A stretch of DNA of 63,897 nt, filler included, from Collodictyon triciliatum (lineage: Eukaryota): NCBI GenBank assembly GCA_043381765.1. It is 10 parts of 10 records of this genome, joined end to end, with 100 filler letters (N's around TTAATTAATTAA, not from the genome) between each part and the next. Parts side by side here need not be neighbours in the genome. Positions count along the whole stretch, not along the records: positions 59,798 to 63,897 come from JBHJMP010004502.1; 9 more parts are not named here. One strand, written 5' to 3'. Below the pieces are notes generated by a model that saw only the letters and a program-made list of their open reading frames with translations, was not told the origin of the DNA and did not search any database. The first letter of the stretch is position 1. Each line of letters opens with the position of its first letter. This document shows, piece by piece, positions 57,185 through 63,897 of the stretch. The position numbers were made by a program, and so were the translations under genes.

Positions 57185-59388
57185 TATAGTACAATTACAG
57201 CATTCCAAATCGGCTCAATCATCCTTGGAATTAAACTCTACTCTAGATAACTGTCTCTCAAATCCGAGTTTGAGAATGAGACACCCCGATACAAGTGAAG
57301 ATTATGATAAAAATCCTGAAATAATTGCTGAGGGTGACAAACAAAGATGTCAAACTCTTGGGGGTCGTCATATGGCCGACAAATTAGATCTCACGAGTTC
57401 GGTGGGTGGTGCAAAATATCTTTTTCAAACAGCTTGGTGCCCTGTTTTTAAGGAGCCAGGGATTAAACACTCATCAACAAAATGGATATCTGGAATCCGT
57501 GCTCTTGTTTTAAGGTCTAACGAACTAGACCATAACGATATACGTATATTATGTTCGGCTCTTCATGACCAGAACTTGCCACTCGAAAGTATCGATCTGA
57601 GTCGCAACCTGATTGACTATTCGGGGGCAAAATACATCGGAACTCTCCTAAAAGAGCCAAATACTCGCATTAGGTTCCTAAACATGAATGAAAATCAATT
57701 GCTTGGAACTTTGGGATTCCAATCTATCATCGATAGTACGTTAAGTAACACTCAGTCTTTTCTTCGAAAGATGTGGTTTGATTTTTGTGGACTTGATTCA
57801 AATTCTGCATATGCATTGAGCAGGGCCCTTTCATTTGCATCTGCCAATCCACATTCTTGCGCTCTGGCCGAGATTAGTGTGAGAGGAAACTACTTACAGA
57901 CACAAGGTGCCAATATACTAGCCCCTTGCCTGCGAATAATATCCCCATGTAACCTTCGTATTCATATGGAATGGAACCATTTTAAGCGTGAAGGCGTTTC
58001 CATCCTGCTGCACGCCATGGCCCAAAACCAGTACACACAAGTATCTAATAGCACAACTTGGAACGTGGCGCGCCTAGGATTCCAAATGAATGGACTTACA
58101 AGAGCAGAAATGGCAAAAGTTATGGATGATGTTCGATTATGTTTGTATCAAGTCCAATCAACATGGGATGACATTTCTAACCATTCTTCATCTATTCATT
58201 CATCAATTGAAGAGGATGATAAGAAAATGGAGATGGAAGCCCAGGCTTCGTTACCAGACCCATATCCTGGAACTTTGGTGGATGCCATTGGAGGAGAGGA
58301 TATTCTTGTCAGAGTGGTTGATGATTTTTACTACAGACTCGTGACTGACCCTCAGTTAAGAGTAAGTGAATGAACCGATTTATCAGGTTCAATTTTTCAA
58401 GTGCATTTCATTTTAAACATCTGGTTTTGGTTGACAGTTAAAGAATTCCCCCAGAGTTTTTATTTTTTAAGAAAAACTTGCTTTTATTTCACCCCTTTTT
58501 TTCTATAGACCTTATTTTTCTTGCATTGTTTCTTTTTTTTTTTTTTTTTTTTTTTNNNNNNNNNNNNNNNNNNNNNNNNNNNNNNNNNNNNNNNNNNNNN
58601 NNNNNNNNNNNNNNNNNNNNNNNNNNNNNNNNNNNNNNNNNNNNNNNNNNNNNNNNNNNNNNNNNNNNNNNNNNNGCATCTTTAACTCTACAGAAATTAA
58701 TTGTTAAAGAGACTATCTTCTCTAGGTATTCTTTCGGGACATAAGTATGAATCGCATGCGACACTTACAGTATGCTTTTTTATTTGGAGGGATGGGTGGT
58801 CAAAAGTCCATCAACAACTCGAGTCTACGAAGGGCACATCGCCACCTAGGACTCACAGATGATCATTTCGATGCCACTGTAGGGCATTTGGTGGCTGCGA
58901 TATACCAGCAAAATCCTGCTTTTCCGACAGAAGCGTTGCTAAATTTGCACTCATATACAGAATCTTTGCGCCCTGACATTGCACAGGCAGGGGATTCCAC
59001 CGGGGTGCGATTCACAAACAGAGATGCAAAATCATTTCTTGAGATGTACACTCCAAAATCTAATCGAGACAATTCGAACGGGAATATCACCTGCCAGCAA
59101 TTACCACTTTCAGATTTCATTCGCTTCAAGTCGGCTGCTTTTTCGCCGTTCTCGATTTCATCTAACTCCATGTTAAACTTGAGCGGAATGGCAAAATCCA
59201 CACCAAATTTACATCTATCAGACTCTCTAGCACATCAAAAGATTCAATCACCCTCCCCTGCAGTATTAGAAGTATTGACAGGGTCAAATGTACTTGATGA
59301 GATTATATGTGAGAAAGACACAGCGCTAAGGACGAAGATAGATATCCAGATAGAGGACATAGTTAAACCTTTCTCGGAGACAGACTGA
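55755..59388 (+). CDS. Multi-TM protein fused to RNI-like LRRs and a group I truncated (2/2) haemoglobin (intron 58362-58725)
   Basis: Hydrophobic helices at about 56100-56970; LESIDLSRNLIDYSGAKYIG-type repeats; spliced globin LVDAIGGEDILVRVVDDFYYRLVTDPQLR/VFFRDISMNRMRHLQYAFL..MGG..LRRAHRHLGLTDDHFDATVGHL; phase-0 junction is in frame. Confidence 0.8.
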
Positions 59389-59796: not shown

Positions 59797-59921
59797 NCGG
59801 GTTTGGCAAAAGTGGCGGTTCCGTACTCCGTAGACACATTTGTGGTTAATCAACATTTAGTTCTCCACATCAACATTTGTGTTGAAAATCGCCACCTTCG
59901 CCAAGCCCGAAACCGTTATAG
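59797..59921 (+). repeat. attC-like site 0 (left core cut by scaffold start)
   Basis: cgggtttggcaaaagtggcggtt pairs with aatcgccaccttcgccaagcccg; core GTTATAG at 59915. Confidence 0.75.
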
Positions 59922-59942
59922 GGCATTTTAAAAGACGACACC

Positions 59943-60617
59943 ATGCAGACAAGAAAACATATAGCTTGGAAGAAAAACCGAAAATTTGGTGACGTTTGGG
60001 GTGGACGAACTTTTCCAAAGCTTGCGGACAAAATATTTAATAGACAGCATAGTTTAACTGCACCAAAAAGTGACGAAACAACGCCAATTTATATAGTTGA
60101 CAATCCTTCCAGAGACTTCTACTTTCCTGTAACAGCAGACGAAATAAAAGCAACTCTTGACAAATTACCCAAAGACCACACCGACCATTTGACACATATT
60201 TGGTTGCAGAAAATTAAGAAGACATATTATGTAAACGGTGACACTTTTCAAGGTTCTTTTATTTGTGGTAGCAAAGTCTATTTAATAGTTATACATCCAT
60301 TTCCGACAGACAACAAAATGAGACTCGGAAAAACCAGACCATTACAAAAGACACTTAACTTTTACAAAAGCTATACGACAGATTTAAAAGAAGACAAAAA
60401 CGGTTGGTATTTACAATGGACAGAAGAAACGATTAGAAAATATTTTTTAGAAAGTTTGTTACTTCACGAAATTGCACATTCCTTAGATAGCTTTTATAAA
60501 AGATATTGGAGCAAAGCAACAACAACTAAAAGTGAAAATTTTGCCGACAATTATGTTGCTGTGTGGGCAGACAAAGTAAGAGAAACGTATAAACCAGATG
60601 AGAAAAACGCCCTATAA
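59943..60617 (+). CDS. Cassette 1: hypothetical protein with HExxH motif (possible zinc metallopeptidase fold)
   Basis: 224-aa ORF; LLLHEIAHS...ENFADNY; stop codon lies inside the CTATAAC core. Confidence 0.75.
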   Translation: MQTRKHIAWKKNRKFGDVWGGRTFPKLADKIFNRQHSLTAPKSDETTPIYIVDNPSRDFYFPVTADEIKATLDKLPKDHTDHLTHIWLQKIKKTYYVNGDTFQGSFICGSKVYLIVIHPFPTDNKMRLGKTRPLQKTLNFYKSYTTDLKEDKNGWYLQWTEETIRKYFLESLLLHEIAHSLDSFYKRYWSKATTTKSENFADNYVAVWADKVRETYKPDEKNAL

Positions 60618-60743
60618 CAGCACCTACAAGAAATTGGCGGTTCAGTTGTTTAATGAAGCTTTGTGCTTCGTATCAAATTCAGTGGTGGCAGACAGTTTTC
60701 GTCTCCGAAATCGCCAACTTCTTGTAGCTGCAAAACGTTAGCT
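60612..60743 (+). repeat. attC-like site 1 (132 bp)
   Basis: CTATAAC; gcacctacaagaaattggcggtt pairs with aatcgccaacttcttgtagctgc; aaaac GTTAGCT. Confidence 0.85.
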
Positions 60744-60772
60744 GTGATTTTAACGACCGAGACAAACTAATA

Positions 60773-61387
60773 ATGAATACTGCAACAGAAATAAAATTTG
60801 ACAAAGTAATTAAGGACGGATTTCACGAAATTTTAAAGCCACTTGGATTTAAAAAGAAGGCTAACAACTTTTATTTACAAAGACAAGAATTAGGACAATT
60901 AATCAATATCCAAAAAAGTTCCTTTTACTCAAAAGACCATATAAACTTTACAATTAATACAGGGCTATTTCTTCCTGAACATTGGACTGGCTTGACATAC
61001 AATGAAGGAAAAGAAATCCCAGCATTTCCGACTGAACCAGAATGTTTAATAAGGAAGCGAATTGGTAAACTCAGAAATCAACACGACACTTGGTATGACA
61101 TTGACGAGAAGATAGATGAGAATGCTTTGATAGTTGAAATGCGGGCGAACCTTTCAAAATATATTTTACCCTATTTCGAAAGAACAAAAACCAAAGAAGA
61201 CTTTTTAAATCTACTTGACAGCGAGAAATTAATTTTGGCACCTTTGGGTAAACTTATTGTTTATGCTGAATTAAAGCAATTTGAAAAGGCAAAGACAGAG
61301 TATTTGACATTTTTGAAGGAAAAAACTACCCCGCATTTTTTAGAAACTCTAAAAGAATACGCACAGAAATATGGACTTGACAAATAG
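60773..61387 (+). CDS. Cassette 2: DUF4304-like protein
   Basis: 204-aa ORF; LKPLGFKKKANNFY..INIQKS..FTINTG..RKRIG.L..DTWY pattern recalled for DUF4304, not searched. Confidence 0.7.
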   Translation: MNTATEIKFDKVIKDGFHEILKPLGFKKKANNFYLQRQELGQLINIQKSSFYSKDHINFTINTGLFLPEHWTGLTYNEGKEIPAFPTEPECLIRKRIGKLRNQHDTWYDIDEKIDENALIVEMRANLSKYILPYFERTKTKEDFLNLLDSEKLILAPLGKLIVYAELKQFEKAKTEYLTFLKEKTTPHFLETLKEYAQKYGLDK

Positions 61388-61396
61388 CAAAACCAC

Positions 61397-61528
61397 AGCT
61401 AACAGCCGTTTTGCAAAATCGGGGGTTTCGTCTTTCTTTGACATTGAAGTGCTGGATTCAAGCTTTTTGCATCTAAAGAAGTTTAGTGCTGAAAAACCCC
61501 GCCTTCGCAAAGCGGCAAAACGTTGGTC
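61397..61528 (+). repeat. attC-like site 2 (132 bp)
   Basis: AGCTAAC; gccgttttgcaaaatcggggg pairs with ccccgccttcgcaaagcggc; aaaac GTTGGTC. Confidence 0.85.
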
Positions 61529-61550
61529 GCAAGTAAATCGAAACTAACTT

Positions 61551-62312
61551 ATGCCGGAAGGAAATTGCAGACTTTGTACCAAATTTGGGAAGTTAACTTT
61601 TGAGCATGTTCCTCCGAAAGTTACTTTTAATAAGACTACACGTTATAAGGTGATTAATTATATGGATTACGTCAAAAAAAGTGATCCGTTCGAGCAAACT
61701 GCTAAAGGAAAAGTTGAACAAGGTGGTATTGGTTTTTATTCACTATGCAAAACTTGTAATAATTTTTTAGGGATTACTTATGTCCCAGCTTATCAGTTAT
61801 ATATAAACTCTTTCACTGATTTTGCAAAAAAGAAAGATTTAAATTCCTTTGAATTTACAATGCATGAATTTACTCCACTTAAAGTCTTAAAACAGATTTT
61901 GTCAATGTTCTTCTCAATTAATGATAAGAATTTTTCTGAAAATAATCGTGACTTAGCAAATTTTATTCTTGATCCAAAGTCTAAGAATTTGCCCAATCGG
62001 TTTAGAATATTTAATTATATAAATACAGAAGGACAATTGAGAAACCTTGGTTTAATGGCCTTAGGCAATTTAAATTCAGGTGGTATTATTGTAGCATCAG
62101 AAATAGCATTCCCACCTATGGGTTATCTTCTAACGGTTAACTTTCATGGACACTTACCCTATCATCAAGAAATAACTTCCTTTAATAAAAATGACATTGA
62201 AGAAAAAGTAGATTTTGATTTCAAGATTTATCGTCTACCAACACATCTGCCATATATACTAGACTATCGTGACAAAACAACAATTCAAAACAGTATAAAT
62301 AAGCAAAAGTAA
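61551..62312 (+). CDS. Cassette 3: HNH endonuclease-like protein
   Basis: 253-aa ORF; CRLC..LTFEHVPPK...LCKTCNNFLG zinc-binding HNH signature. Confidence 0.75.
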   Translation: MPEGNCRLCTKFGKLTFEHVPPKVTFNKTTRYKVINYMDYVKKSDPFEQTAKGKVEQGGIGFYSLCKTCNNFLGITYVPAYQLYINSFTDFAKKKDLNSFEFTMHEFTPLKVLKQILSMFFSINDKNFSENNRDLANFILDPKSKNLPNRFRIFNYINTEGQLRNLGLMALGNLNSGGIIVASEIAFPPMGYLLTVNFHGHLPYHQEITSFNKNDIEEKVDFDFKIYRLPTHLPYILDYRDKTTIQNSINKQK

Positions 62313-62322
62313 ACGAACCTGC

Positions 62323-62489
62323 GACCAACAAAAGGCTTTACGCAATTTGGGTTTCAGCAATGGCCTATCAGCTTTGATAGTGCTATTCAACTGTAGTAAT
62401 TTGGCTTTCAGCTAATCGCGTTTTTTAGTGGCCAAGCCAGCAGTAGGAACAATATTTCCCAAACTGCGTTAAGCCCGAAAACGTTATCA
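62323..62489 (+). repeat. attC-like site 3 (167 bp)
   Basis: GACCAAC; ggctttacgcaatttggg pairs with cccaaactgcgttaagcc; aaaac GTTATCA. Confidence 0.8.
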
Positions 62490-62678
62490 GCTACTCAGCT
62501 GCGTCGCAGATCCTAGCTGTGGGTTTTGGTTACCTTGGGCAAAAGAGCGAATGATTTTTCAAGGCGGCTTTAATCAACCCAGCTATTGAACAAGGCCAAA
62601 CTGGATAGCAGTATTATTAATGGAGTCTCTAATAGTTTCTGAGAGCGATTAATATAAATTCAATGAGCAGCTTATAAC
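62483..62678 (+). other. Cassette 4: ORF-less, structured cassette
   Basis: Bounded by GTTATCAGCTACTCA and TGAGCAGCTTATAAC; no long ORF; second copy at 63770. Confidence 0.7.
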
Positions 62679-62851
62679 AATAGGCTTTACGCAATTTGGG
62701 TTTCAGCAATGGCCCATCAGCTTTGGTNTTGCTTGCCAAAAGCGGGGCGTTCGCGGTGGCAGAAACTTTTCGGCTCCGAATAAAAATTTGTGGTAGCTTG
62801 AATGATGATGCTTCTAAAGCCCCGCCTTCGGCAAGCCCCAGAACGTTATAG
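62672..62851 (+). repeat. Composite attC-like site(s) joined at a single N (62728)
   Basis: Left part is near-identical to the site 3 left arm; right part is a separate hairpin gcttgccaaaagcggggc/gccccgccttcggcaagc ending GTTATAG. Confidence 0.7.
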
Positions 62852-62861
62852 GCAAGGCTAA

Positions 62862-63650
62862 ATGACGACACAGCAACTAAATAAAGTAAAGCAGACACTT
62901 GGATTTTTCTCTATGACCATTGCGTGGACATTGATGAATTTACTTCATTCCATTTATCTCGCTTGGACAGACGGCAAAGCGGATGACAGTGGTGTAATTA
63001 TTTTTTGGTCAGGACTTTTTATTACAATCTCTTGGGCAGTTTTTATAATCTTTCCTTTAAACAAGCTTGACCATTCGACACAGATTTTCAAACCTCTAGT
63101 CTTTCCTTTCATTGCAGCATTTTACGGAGCATTGACATATTCAATTATTGTCAGTGGACTGTTTCGCAGCCTTGACCTGGTAGTTATGTTTATGCCTTTA
63201 GCCTTGTTGACAGGTTTTATTTTCGGTTTTGTATATTCACAACTCATAAGGTTAGACAAATTAGTTGACTACCTTGTTAAACGACCATTAGCAAAGTCAA
63301 TTTTCTTTCTATCGCCAGTTATTATTTTATTCATTTTTTTATGGTTACTACCGACAATTGCCCCTTCATTGGTCTTTCGTTACATGCCTGATGAAATTAG
63401 ATATAAAATTATTGCTCGAACAATTCCCAAATTCAAAGTTGGAGACGACTTTGAACCCTTAAAAAATTCTCTTCCAGGTTTTCTTGACCACATTGACAAT
63501 GGAAGTGGAAACATGTCTGCAACAATGGAAAATTTCGGCTTTGCTTTACAAGTTCATTGCAACAAAATAATTAGACTTGAATACGGAAAAGACCAAAATG
63601 ATTTTGACGGAACAATTTATGGAAAACTTCAAGAGAAGCCCTGCCTATAA
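62862..63650 (+). CDS. Cassette 5: hypothetical membrane protein (about 5 TM plus a soluble C-terminal domain)
   Basis: 262-aa hydrophobic ORF; stop codon inside CTATAAC. Confidence 0.75.
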   Translation: MTTQQLNKVKQTLGFFSMTIAWTLMNLLHSIYLAWTDGKADDSGVIIFWSGLFITISWAVFIIFPLNKLDHSTQIFKPLVFPFIAAFYGALTYSIIVSGLFRSLDLVVMFMPLALLTGFIFGFVYSQLIRLDKLVDYLVKRPLAKSIFFLSPVIILFIFLWLLPTIAPSLVFRYMPDEIRYKIIARTIPKFKVGDDFEPLKNSLPGFLDHIDNGSGNMSATMENFGFALQVHCNKIIRLEYGKDQNDFDGTIYGKLQEKPCL

Positions 63651-63776
63651 CACGGGTTTTGCGTCAGGCGGGATGACGTTCAAACTTTGAGCTTTGTGCT
63701 TCTAATAAACTATAGTAATAAAATGAAACTTTGTGCTCCGAAACCCGCCCGAACGCAAAGCCCCGAAACGTTATCA
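63645..63776 (+). repeat. attC-like site 5 (132 bp)
   Basis: CTATAAC; cgggttttgcgtcaggcggg pairs with cccgcccgaacgcaaagccccg; aaac GTTATCA. Confidence 0.85.
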
Positions 63777-63897
63777 GCTACTCAGCTGCGGCGCAGATCC
63801 CGGCTGTGGGTTTGGTTACCTTGGGCAAAAGAGCGAATGATTATTCAAGGCGGCTTTAATCAACCCAGCTATTGAACAAGGCCGAACAGGATAGCAG
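63770..63897 (+). other. Cassette 6: second copy of the ORF-less cassette (cut by window end)
   Basis: About 7 differences over 128 nt relative to 62483-62611. Confidence 0.75.

Follow-up and report, generated by a model that had tools for sequence, protein, structure and literature searches.

A probable integron-type cassette array with extended attC stems on a bacterial contig in the Collodictyon triciliatum assembly

Structure of the array

The window (the whole stretch of DNA analysed, 63,897 nucleotides from assembly GCA_043381765.1 of Collodictyon triciliatum) is a chain of unrelated contigs, amid which positions 59798-63897 form one short bacterial contig. We regard this contig, with a probability of roughly 0.85, as an integron-type array of a Bacteroidota bacterium, i.e. 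a row of mobile gene cassettes with attC recombination sites between them. It possesses six AAC...GTT sites with 20-bp inner stems, spaced at ~0.7-0.9 kb, and all open reading frames (ORFs) lie on one strand (Table 1). No resistance gene was recognised among the window cassettes in a Pfam search of their four ORFs. Cassette 4 has no ORF of at least 40 aa wholly inside it, and neither an Rfam family nor an unusual fold was found for it. The site type of attC 4 is the commonest in the metagenome contigs, with a depth of 100-197 vs 4-7 for cassette bodies. Cassette 6 resembles cassette 4 closely from the GTT onward and little upstream of it (87% identity across the whole alignment).

From 62676 on, the attC of cassette 4 duplicates the 5' half of attC 4, and it stops at a single N (62728), where the 5' half of one attC meets the 3' part of a second. 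This junction is probably an assembly join that renders the site at the end of cassette 4 chimeric; among the contig pieces and joints listed from four metagenome runs, none crosses 62703-62731. Since the inverted-repeat arms of cassette 4 both lie left of the N and those of cassette 5 both right, the two pairs stand despite it.

Table 1. Features of the cassette array at positions 59798-63897
Feature	Position	Strand	Evidence and remarks
attC 1, partial	59798..59921	+	contig begins within site; R'' absent; L''/L' stem present; R' GTTATAG, G at 59915; model R1, 110 bits
Cassette 1 (TT... to G)	59916..60737	+	stem arms 59915-59929 / 60604-60618; inverted-repeat search
Cassette 1 ORF	59943-60617	+	224 aa; HExxH motif; no Pfam family; TAA stop within R''
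attC 2 (R'' CTATAAC ... R' GTTAGCT)	60612..60743	+	model R1, 130 bits; generic hairpin finder, -23.2 kcal/mol; folds
Cassette 2	60738..61522	+	stem arms 60737-60751 / 61389-61403; inverted-repeat search; adjoins cassette 5 in X3 record 18
Cassette 2 ORF	60773-61387	+	204 aa; DUF4304
attC 3	61397..61528	+	model R1, 124 bits; generic hairpin finder; folds
Cassette 3	61523..62483	+	stem arms 61522-61534 / 62317-62329: 10 pairs, A/C, 2 pairs; inverted-repeat search
Cassette 3 ORF	61551-62312	+	253 aa; no Pfam family
attC 4, longer (167 nt)	62323..62489	+	model R1, 29.6 bits; generic hairpin finder
Cassette 4	62484..62727	+	stem arms 62483-62497 / 62664-62678 (13/15); depth ~5x other cassettes
Single N and L''...L'-R' part of a different attC, without R''	62728 (N); 62728..62851	+	model R1, 62730-62851, 48 bits; fold
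Cassette 5	62846..63770	+	stem arms 62845-62859 / 63637-63651; inverted-repeat search
Cassette 5 ORF	62862-63650	+	262 aa; no Pfam family; TAA stop within R''
attC 6	63645..63776	+	model R1, 122 bits; generic hairpin finder; folds
Cassette 6, truncated by window end; second copy of cassette 4	63771..63897	+	sequence alignment

Pairing between the two ends of a cassette

The first-pass annotation had described five pairs in which the sequence following a GTT complements the sequence preceding the AAC at the end of the same cassette. All five were recovered, with 10/10 complementary positions at 59915/60609, 60737/61394 and 61522/62320, 13/15 at 62483/62664 and 14/15 at 62845/63637. That each GTT matches its own cassette end better than the AAC of its present hairpin likewise holds: when all GTTs were compared with all AACs, the ungapped Watson-Crick runs were 10, 10, 10, 5 and 10 within cassettes (the fourth being 13/15 paired overall) vs 4, 3, 3 and 6 in the present hairpins and 5 in that of the sixth site. 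Among wrong pairings the longest run, of 8, involves cassettes 1 and 5, which both carry GTTATAGG.

Beyond these earlier observations, 5/5 pairs have at position 11 an A in the start arm opposite a C in the end arm; four further pairs follow (in cassette 3 only two), so that the stem spans 15 positions in 4/5 cassettes. An inverted-repeat search independently recovered three of the pairs as 15 nt with 93% complementarity and a fourth as 13 nt with 92%; it missed the fifth, which has no 9-nt seed. Other inverted repeats of 10-13 nt are also present in this AT-rich 4.1 kb contig, and length alone is therefore no argument; the argument lies in the register, as every repeat begins with the G of an R' GTT and stops with the C of the R'' AAC that follows. 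Such matching cassette ends are the textbook scar left by excision and rejoining at GTT.

A family of sites with an extended stem

A covariance model built on four window sites, with the extension left out, yielded 117 matches (E<=1), spread over the window and 14 of 79 related Bacteroidota loci, and the attC family was found in 69 of 151 sampled Bacteroidota genomes. In the alignment fitted to this model, compensatory changes occur at all 20 pairs of the inner stem, whose cells are paired in 90.4% of cases, vs 63% after shuffling and 35-40% with the partner slid.

Across 78 cassettes, pairing between own ends was found in 78, 78, 78, 68, 63, 61, 64 and 64 at positions 1-8 and in 63, 46, 4, 65, 63, 57, 48 and 8 at positions 9-16, with A/C at position 11 in 64/78. 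In the same comparison, positions 5-7 of the sites as they now stand pair at shuffle level. The own-cassette stem is absent in 11/78 consecutive-site pairs, some of which bridge gaps of 3-8 kb or sites that were missed. A permutation test on 68 distinct family cassettes (window and 14 other loci) addressed positions 8-10 and 12-14, beyond the 7-nt box: mean pairing was 4.41/6 for own partners vs 2.50 (sd 0.13) for permuted ones, and 0/10000 permutations reached the observed value. The extension is a trait of the family: ten pairs are followed by a conserved A/C at position 11 and by four further pairs, with the end at position 16.

On the bottom strand the A/C at position 11 becomes a G·T wobble. 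The inner stem has 211 bottom-strand G·T cells vs 56 A·C cells. Folding of the circular form predicts the bottom strand to be stabler than the top strand in 65/71 cassettes (means -28.1 vs -23.5 kcal/mol). The predicted hairpin has a one-sided bulge of 3-4 nt in 40/63 folds.

The integrase beside related arrays

Neither an integrase nor an attI is visible in the window, where the array's contig measures only 4.1 kb, and the array is consequently tied to a recombinase only via its relatives. There, attI adjoins an integrase gene that is co-oriented with the cassettes, and cassettes are re-inserted at attI. The integrase has no IntI-specific insertion (against three canonical IntIs it is short of two segments, of 20 and 21 aa) but has an extra N-terminal region of ~80 aa, and its greatest similarity is to the archaeal XerA structures 4A8E and 5HXY. 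An 18-row tree places it in a separate clade beside the canonical IntIs and away from the two Xer paralogues of the hosts (support 100/99). In the literature we found no description of an integrase beside these arrays. This enzyme would presumably serve the window array too.

Crossover point and mobility of the cassettes

In the definition of the ACID paper, a cassette starts with the first T of R' and ends with the G of the R' that follows, so that its own attC is the site present in the circular form. The first-pass annotation had arrived at this textbook definition in proposing that crossover occurs at the GTT and that a fully paired site exists only in the circular cassette; folds, alternative neighbours and a duplicate all agree with it. 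When cassettes were circularised and folded in silico, the bottom strand of the circular form was predicted to be stabler than the standing site in 60/71 family cassettes, the predicted gain being ~10 kcal/mol in 4/5 window sites and 5.9 in the chimeric fifth.

A 1718-bp contig (run X3, record 18) links 60734-61518 of the window straight to 62842-63753, that is, cassette 2 adjoins cassette 5, with the joint within the common AACGTT. Among the 24 loose contig ends listed, 10 lie within 4 nt of a GTT/AAC boundary, and such intervals make up 2.4% of the stretch. Within the window, the resemblance of cassettes 4 and 6 likewise sets in at the GTT. In other genomes, homologues of cassette 1 begin at the same GTT beside unrelated neighbours. 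Finally, genome G001, that of a relative, contains a 1436-nt two-cassette block, beginning at the G of GTT, which is present with 100% identity at attI and 17 kb down the array. No circle junction appeared in the metagenome contigs, which do not reveal rare circles.

The further proposal that cassettes move as units stands in part. The stretch from GTT to AAC is constant between genomes; the inner attC, however, is often of the resident array's type. At two loci (L012, L010) the attC after the cassette-1 homologue is 96-98% identical to its array mates and only 57-69% identical to the attCs after cassette-1 homologues elsewhere. Between genomes, the inner attC mostly does not travel with the ORF, an outcome not predicted by a simple unit model.

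An unlikely, though the best surviving, alternative is that the mobile unit is an ORF module from GTT to AAC instead of ORF plus attC. A recombinase without the domain for extrahelical bases would cut folded sites on either strand, at the G|TT of R' or the AA|C of R''. ORF modules would then be shuffled independently of the inner attC hairpins, and the 15-nt inverted repeat would be the ends always travelling with the ORF. Besides the resident-type attCs and the missing integrase insertion, points in its favour are the homology between genomic copies of cassette 1, which stops at the AAC (identity to the window in the 45 nt after it is 0.27-0.49 in 6/7 loci vs 0.53-0.87 before it), and metagenome sites of the attC 4 type, which follow other sequences and break at 62326 and 62675, just 5' of the AAC. 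Yet the sole recent event seen, the G001 duplicate, is a classical unit from the G|TT of attI to the G|TT ending the second cassette's own attC, and in the pair formed by the window and L053 the attC travelled with the ORF (81% identical). The bottom-strand G·T excess and the energy bias point to one preferred strand, and gene conversion among the near-identical attCs of one array would homogenise the shared part up to AAC/GTT without a second cut site.

Less probable still is an ordinary double-strand, Xer-like exchange at a conserved AACGTT, to which hairpins and cassette-end repeats would be irrelevant. The palindrome does stand at 5/6 window junctions, and the XerA-like integrase without the IntI insertion would suit such an exchange; but it explains neither the compensatory covariation of the 20-bp inner stem, nor the cassette-specific complementarity of sequences 0.7 kb apart, nor why G·T outnumbers A·C almost four to one on one strand, and the arm right of the GTT, differing in every cassette, could not be read by sequence. 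A third reading, in which small transposable elements insert beside hairpins and the bracketing repeats are their terminal inverted repeats, or in which these are chance or consensus matches, is contradicted by the permutations and by the cassette ends at other loci: 13-15-nt inverted repeats do flank each ORF, and others of 10-13 nt arise by chance in the contig, but the repeat sequence varies while complementarity is kept over 68 distinct start/end pairs, the cassette-1 homologues in L011 and L013 have other, still complementary ends, and Pfam recognised no transposase (none of its families in three ORFs, DUF4304 in the fourth).

Comparison with known systems

Among the closest counterparts of the integron-type array proposed here are sedentary chromosomal integrons, such as the superintegron of Vibrio cholerae with its ~125-nt VCR sites. 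Shared features are long one-strand arrays of promoterless cassettes mostly of unknown function, long attC sites resembling one another within each array, G|TT crossover in AAC...GTT boxes, complementarity between a cassette's own R'' and R' that only circularisation restores, a bottom-strand folding bias and, in the relatives, an attI adjoining the integrase at which cassettes are re-inserted. As opposed to these integrons, the relatives' integrase lacks the IntI-specific insertion, carries the N-terminal region and is co-oriented with the cassettes. According to Nivina et al. 2016, each arm of a classical attC site has 5-6 unpaired bases, and there are extrahelical bases besides, whereas the predicted hairpin of the present family has its one-sided bulge. 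Also different are the 15 positions of the R stem and the fixed G·T at position 11.

With the cassettes of mobile (class 1) integrons and their 59-base elements the array shares the argument that derives the crossover point from start/end complementarity, which reportedly goes back to Hall, Brookes and Stokes 1991. The boundary definition, as given in the ACID paper, is likewise the same. A difference is that sites there are described by Bouvier et al. 2009 as bounded by heptanucleotide boxes and 57-142 nt long. Unlike class 1 cassettes, those of the window include no recognised resistance gene, and 3/4 ORFs have no Pfam family.

For CTXphi, one of the elements that exploit XerCD, Escudero et al. 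2016 describe a recombinase without an I2-like domain and, as its substrate, a hairpin with a stem that mimics duplex DNA in place of extrahelical bases. The long, near-perfect R and inner stems of the present sites fit that picture of XerCD acting on folded single-stranded DNA. The substrate here, however, is a tandem cassette array and not a phage genome, and in the relatives a dedicated recombinase gene lies beside it.

Own-cassette complementarity of more than 7 bp also occurs in an Acidobacteria array (L057/L098, genome G156), where the runs in 12 cassettes are 10, 11, 8, 10, 11, 11, 9, 8, 11, 11, 9 and 11. Its sites measure only 60-72 nt, pairing mostly breaks at or before position 12, and A/C at position 11 is found in 0/12. 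The IntI of this genome exceeds the TIGR02249 cut-off (469 bits), and the contig that encodes it also carries the same attC type, 9.4 kb away. The suggestion that the extra 3-8 bp of complementarity hint at how cassettes are created was not upheld: with stems of 8-11 bp also in the array of a genome that has a canonical IntI, we found no clue to cassette creation, and the fixed letters at set positions make the extension look like a recognised structure.

Proposed mechanism and implications

Under the integron-type explanation, which we consider well supported overall, each attC would be an imperfect hairpin whose base stem is complete in the free circular cassette, formed by the last 15 nt up to and including AAC (R'' side) and by GTT with the next 12 nt (R' side). 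On integration of the circle, the recombinase would cut the bottom strand within AAC, corresponding to G|TT on the top strand. Such a cut would leave the distal R' at the opposite end of the linear cassette, its 5' end, beside the attC of the previous one, which would leave each cassette bracketed by its own inverted repeat and the standing hairpin badly paired. The stem length, with its 10 pairs, bottom-strand G·T at position 11 and 4 pairs, is a feature of the attC family. Recombination would proceed on a single strand, the bottom one, as the G·T excess and the predicted folds suggest.

Most likely, the long stem provides the recombinase subunit on the R side with a full-length duplex arm and favours bottom-strand folding, a role in which the wobble may share. 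Both the recombination sites and the integrase found next to related arrays differ from those of classical integrons; as this integrase is without the domain regarded as necessary for recombining attC sites, its chemistry may differ from that of classical integrons as well.

The cassette-bearing contig

The window joins ten contigs of ~6.5 kb through N44-TTAATTAATTAA-N44 linkers, and has longer N runs at 55220-55685 and 58556-58675. The last contig (59798-63897), whose 5' end lies inside a recombination site and whose 3' end is cut by the window limit, contains six sites in which AAC and GTT flank an inner stem of 20 bp, and the ORFs in the spacers all lie on one strand. These six sites, and the wider family to which they belong, possess the imperfect R''-L''...L'-R' layout with conserved AAC and GTT that characterizes attC, and the anatomy of the contig is that of an integron cassette array. 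No integrase lies among the six attC sites in view (4.1 kb, with both contig ends incomplete), and the array may or may not be a CALIN, a cluster of attC sites without a nearby integrase. Most of the nine preceding contigs (1-59797), which measure ~6.54-6.55 kb and are apparently sorted by length, begin or end in simple or low-complexity repeats (TAA, AG, ATT, AATCCC, poly-T, ACAT). The cassette contig accordingly has the appearance of a bacterial passenger, the assembly around it being fragmented and either eukaryote-like or mixed.

The only Pfam match of the array contig is DUF4304 in cassette 2, and none of the cassette ORFs matches a recognised transposase family in Pfam; in Rfam no family reached its gathering score anywhere in the window, the array contig yielding four sub-threshold matches at chance level. 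The cassette-1 protein (see Table) has 203 homologues, found in cassettes of Bacteroidota as well as in genomes of Planctomycetota, Acidobacteriota, Myxococcota and Alphaproteobacteria, and is a possible small metallopeptidase, since an H-E-x-x-H...D motif is invariant across 29 aligned homologues. Cassette 4 and its second copy, cassette 6, have no ORF of 40 aa or more wholly inside and no Rfam family, and their predicted RNA fold is no better than that of shuffled sequences (z 0.27); their contig depth in four metagenome runs is ~5x that of the coding cassettes. Short repeated ORF-less cassettes are also present in related loci, with three copies of 106 nt (GTT to AAC) in L005 and others of 283 nt in L003. 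Among the contig pieces and joints listed for the four runs, none crosses 62703-62731, so the single N in the chimeric site is probably a scaffolding join in a repeat, and as it fuses the 5' half of an attC 4-like site to the 3' part of another, 'cassette 4' is not a verified unit.

Table. Coordinates of features in the array contig and in the integrase genes of related arrays
Feature	Position	Size or type	Remarks
Cassette-1 ORF	59943-60617	224 aa	Pfam: no family
Cassette 4 and its second copy, cassette 6	62484-62727 and 63771-63897	ORF-less	alike from GTT on, unlike before GTT; 87% over the whole alignment
Chimeric site	62676-62851		single N at 62728; 5' half copies attC 4, followed by a different L''
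N-terminal region of the array integrase	L017 (related locus) 3375-3620, and orthologues	~80 aa	conserved motif ARWS...K.WH.PD, absent from canonical IntIs

Complementarity of cassette starts and ends

The first-pass annotation had pointed out that the sequence following the GTT of a cassette complements the sequence preceding the AAC at the end of the same cassette, and the five pairs on which it relied were all recovered, with 10/10, 10/10, 10/10, 13/15 and 14/15 complementary positions. In a full matrix of GTT against AAC, the perfect runs within one cassette measure 10, 10, 10, 5 and 10, versus 4, 3, 3, 6 and 5 in the hairpins as they stand in the linear array, and a repeat search retrieved four of the five pairs independently. 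That annotation overlooked position 11, where all five pairs have an A at the start opposite a C at the end, followed by 2-4 further pairs. On the bottom strand this combination is a G·T wobble, and the stem is therefore continuous over 15 positions in four of the five window pairs.

For a wider view we used the alignment of the 29 cassette-1 homologues to retrieve 79 loci from a genome collection, the closest of which all belong to Bacteroidota (Chryseobacterium, Kaistella, Flavobacterium, Pedobacter and many metagenome-assembled genomes, MAGs). A covariance model of the sites was built on the bottom strand from four window sites of similar length, leaving out the long attC 4 and everything past the 7-nt boxes. 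At E<=1 it gave 117 matches, spread over the window and 14 loci. Cassette orientation is shared by 99 of the matches; AAC and GTT could both be located in 89 of these 99, which define 78 cassettes between consecutive sites. Watson-Crick pairs between the two ends of the same cassette number, for positions 1 to 16, 78, 78, 78, 68, 63, 61, 64, 64, 63, 46, 4, 65, 63, 57, 48 and 8 (n=78). The A/C combination at position 11 is found in 64 of the 78; among 68 distinct cassettes the start has A there in 67 and the end has C in 55, and at position 16 most have A on both sides. Over positions 8-10 and 12-14 a cassette end pairs with its own partner at 4.41 of 6 positions, as against 2.50 with permuted partners, a value reached in none of 10000 permutations (68 cassettes), while pairing at positions 5-7 of the sites as they stand is at the level of shuffled partners. 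The positional counts and the permutations thus describe a stem with a sharp end that mixes fixed letters with cassette-specific covariation. The own stem is absent in 11 of the 78, some of which span 3-8 kb and probably include missed sites. The extended stem is a trait of the attC family.

Terminal inverted repeats of a transposon or MITE would also bring complementary sequences to the ends of each unit, an origin that we reject in view of 68 distinct end pairs, which keep their complementarity while the sequence varies, and of cassette ORFs that match no recognised transposase family.

A stem longer than 7 bp is not in itself unusual. The arm of a Xer-type site is about eleven base pairs long, and on an Acidobacteria contig (L057) runs of 8-11 connect the ends of the same cassette in 12 of 12 cassettes; the genome in question encodes an IntI of 469 bits, over the cut-off, and a matching type of site (60-72 nt) lies 9.4 kb from the IntI gene. 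As runs of this length also occur in an IntI-type array, the suggestion that the extra pairing hints at how cassettes are created finds no support. What distinguishes the present Bacteroidota attC family from other stems of more than 7 bp is positions 11-15 together with the fixed wobble. This Acidobacteria contig and the other flank (L098) form the useful IntI control. The flanks of IntI genes in three genomes (G156, to which this contig belongs, G157 and G159) were scanned with a generic AAC...GTT hairpin finder, which recovers the four complete sites of the window, and no array was detected on the flank sides fetched first. The many hairpins in high-GC loci were treated as false positives rather than attCs, as they show no pairing between the ends of one cassette.

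Crossover at GTT

The interpretation that crossover takes place at G|TT, and that the original R''/R' pair is restored only in the circular form of a cassette, holds for all five window cassettes and agrees with the counts in the family, with neighbours that change at AACGTT and with a duplicate at attI. Complementarity of this kind is reportedly how the crossover point of integrons was first worked out, so that on its own the feature is a correct rediscovery. The core interpretation is right but textbook: the ACID paper defines a cassette in this way, and Nivina et al. 2016 give a corresponding account of the R box, for which they cite Hall, Brookes and Stokes 1991.

Parts of the array stretch are present in 20 of the 24 public metagenome runs listed, and half or more of the sampled words in none; the four runs compared in detail are Logan contigs, which cannot reveal rare circles, parts of the window left uncovered are not evidence of absence, and runs with a small share carry no information on habitat. 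A 1718-bp contig of one run (X3) continues from window 60734-61518 directly into 62842-63753, i.e., it places cassette 2 beside cassette 5, the joint being ambiguous within the six letters AACGTT. In four runs, 10 of the 24 loose ends among those listed fall no more than 4 nt from a boundary at GTT or AAC, and the depth over the attCs is 10-30x that over the cassette bodies. Joints that lead back towards an upstream part of the array were rejected as circle junctions, since attCs that recur with different cassettes in between account for them; in another run (X1, record 3), for example, two attC 4-like sites lie 470 nt apart.

Cassette 1 alone can be traced across genomes. Cassettes 2, 3, 5 and 4 have no homologue in the loci that were fetched, so its homologues have other neighbours everywhere. 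At six of nine loci the ungapped match to the window improves across the G of GTT, with identities of 0.38-0.76 over the preceding 45 nt and of 0.80-0.98 from the G onwards; two of the remaining loci have an early indel that breaks the ungapped comparison, and the third (L053) has a further GTT at the adjacent junction. In the Kaistella locus L005 (~6700-6725) the cassette-1 homologue starts at the usual GTT, the preceding ...TTTGAGA is not an attC and no site was found in the 2.3 kb upstream; this start may represent an insertion at a secondary site or an interrupted array.

An apparently recent event is preserved in the type strain Flavobacterium urocaniciphilum DSM 27078 (G001), where a 1436-nt block of two cassettes occurs twice in one array (locus L088, contig C8, 34542-35977 and 17237-18672) with 100% identity. 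One copy directly follows the attI-like ATATAAACAA and the other lies 17 kb down the array, and the identical stretch opens with the G of GTT and stops five letters inside the R' that follows. A circle of two cassettes integrating at attI would leave just such a duplicate, which looks like a recent integrase-mediated copy.

Between genomes the picture is different. In copies of cassette 1 the 3' homology stops at the AAC, the next 45 nt being only 0.27-0.49 identical in six of seven loci. In two of the loci (L012 and L010) the next attC shares 96-98% identity with other attCs of its own array and only 57-69% with those following cassette-1 homologues elsewhere; in the pair formed by the window and L053 the attC travelled with the ORF (81%). 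Homology that ends at the AAC and attCs that are particular to their array therefore indicate that the GTT-to-AAC stretch has been uncoupled from the inner hairpin over long times, which would result from gene conversion among near-identical sites or from a second crossover at R''. The view that cassettes move as units thus stands for the recent Flavobacterium event, which is a classical unit, and needs qualifying for exchange between genomes, where the attC mostly did not accompany the ORF.

Predicted folding of the sites

In the alignment fitted to the model, all 20 pairs of the inner stem show compensatory change, and 90.4% of its cells are paired, compared with 63% in shuffles and 35-40% with slid partners. 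Two of its positions are mostly G·U on the bottom strand, and the stem displays fixed wobble and mismatch positions rather than clear bulged bases. Circularising and folding the window cassettes in silico, a check proposed in the first-pass annotation, gave -33 to -37 kcal/mol for the circular bottom strands against -23 to -27 kcal/mol for the sites as they stand (DNA parameters). Across 71 cassettes of the family, the predicted stability of the circular bottom strand exceeds that of the site as it stands in 60 and that of the top strand in 65. Inner-stem cells contain 211 G·T versus 56 A·C combinations on the bottom strand, and the bottom strand is thus predicted to be favoured for folding. 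Positions that carry G·T on one strand only suggest a choice of strand without extrahelical bases.

Of 63 minimum-energy folds of the circular form, 40 have a bulge of 3-4 nt that is confined to the R'-L' arm. Classical attC sites, as described in Nivina et al. 2016, contain extrahelical bases and an unpaired central spacer with 5-6 bases on each arm, and differ in this respect from the one-arm bulge of 3-4 nt predicted here.

The integrase and attI of related arrays

At the related locus L017, a 356-aa ORF immediately precedes the array, with which it shares the strand, and is followed by an attI-like region and the first cassette. Its product passes the NCBIfam model NF040815, 'site-specific tyrosine recombinase/integron integrase' (231.5 bits, cut-off 220), which is also the name that NCBI gives to the array integrases, but fails the integron integrase model TIGR02249 (204.6, cut-off 265); the cut-off of the latter was reached in none of five genomes with such arrays. 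Among proteins of solved structure, archaeal XerA are its best matches, and it aligns with VchIntIA (2A3V) only at VchIntIA residues 10-186 and 246-318. In an alignment with three canonical IntIs, two segments (20 and 21 aa) are missing from this protein and from two orthologues, all of which possess ~80 extra N-terminal residues (see Table), for which no Pfam family scored above threshold (sub-threshold DUF5710, 16.5 bits, cut-off 26.5). An integrase with the IntI-specific additional domain was accordingly not found in the relatives, and the 4.1 kb of the window array hold no integrase. We infer the link between the window array and this integrase from the relatives.

The arrays reach up to the integrase in F. 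urocaniciphilum, Kaistella palustris DSM 21579 (G002) and a Pedobacter MAG (G003). In three genomes an attI-like ATATAAAC(G/A)A|GTT lies ~95 nt past the stop codon of the integrase, so that an attI beside the integrase is present in relatives, and it is there that the duplicated cassette block of F. urocaniciphilum is located. On a 61673-bp contig of K. palustris (L005 and L090), cassettes occupy the first 7.5 kb, starting inside an attC, and the integrase and array the last 8.6 kb; this may reflect an array broken up during assembly or a circular contig. Several integrase genes adjacent to arrays have in-frame stops, namely one TAA in the Pedobacter MAG (L089), one TGA and one TAA in G052 and one TGA in G084. 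These genes, which stand beside long arrays, may be decayed or may reflect sequencing errors in MAGs.

Among 151 evenly sampled Bacteroidota genomes the integrase was matched in 22 (E<=1e-70), 21 of which also have sites, and in at least 11 of the 22 gene and sites are co-oriented on one contig within ~12 kb. A tree of 18 sequences, which carries a long-branch warning and is too small to tell early branching from loss of the insertion, groups seven array integrases in a clade (100/99) whose neighbours are three canonical IntIs and from which eight host Xer paralogues are separate. We reject chromosome-dimer resolution by Xer at dif as the role of these sites: the array integrases form a clade of their own (100/99), and at least 11 of the 22 carrier genomes have the gene beside arrays.

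Distribution and significance

The site model matched 69 of the 151 Bacteroidota genomes in the sample, and 50 of the 69 had at least two matching places. The array is a widespread integron variant of Bacteroidota, whose sites, like the integrase of its relatives, depart from the classical defining features. According to the IntegronFinder 2.0 paper, only In0 elements were earlier known from Bacteroidetes, to which one complete integron, in Salinibacter, has now been added, and Bacteroidota are not among the eleven taxon models of Ghaly et al. 2021. A search of mostly open-access literature returned no description of Bacteroidota cassette arrays with an insertion-less integrase. Ghaly et al. 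2022, with reference to Messier and Roy 2001, treat the IntI-specific domain as a defining feature. In the 'integron-like' subgroup of Smyshlyaev et al. 2021 the insertion 'is not fully conserved'. The I2 insertion is thought to be necessary for attC recombination.

A more far-reaching, tentative reading (probability about 0.4) is that these arrays constitute a phylum-wide, undescribed class of Bacteroidota integrons, served by a dedicated IntI relative that either never had or has lost the I2 insertion, and that their attCs compensate by imitating duplex DNA. The imitation would be achieved by an R stem of 15 positions with a fixed bottom-strand G·T at position 11 and a one-sided 4-nt bulge, and further inwards by the 20-bp stem with additional fixed wobbles. 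Escudero et al. 2016 describe such a hairpin in CTXphi, which imitates duplex DNA and has no extrahelical bases, and propose that a Xer-like ancestor gained an I2-like domain; the arrays would then be a living example of the stage that these authors envisage on the way to integrons, in which a Xer-like recombinase acts on folded cassettes.

If true, this may explain why surveys that require the IntI-specific domain have recovered almost no complete integrons from Bacteroidota. The exact two-cassette copy at attI in a cultured type strain looks like recent activity. If the array integrase was responsible for it, cassettes can recombine without the I2 domain, which would then not be required in general, and the origin of integrons from Xer-like ancestors would become testable in culturable, harmless bacteria.
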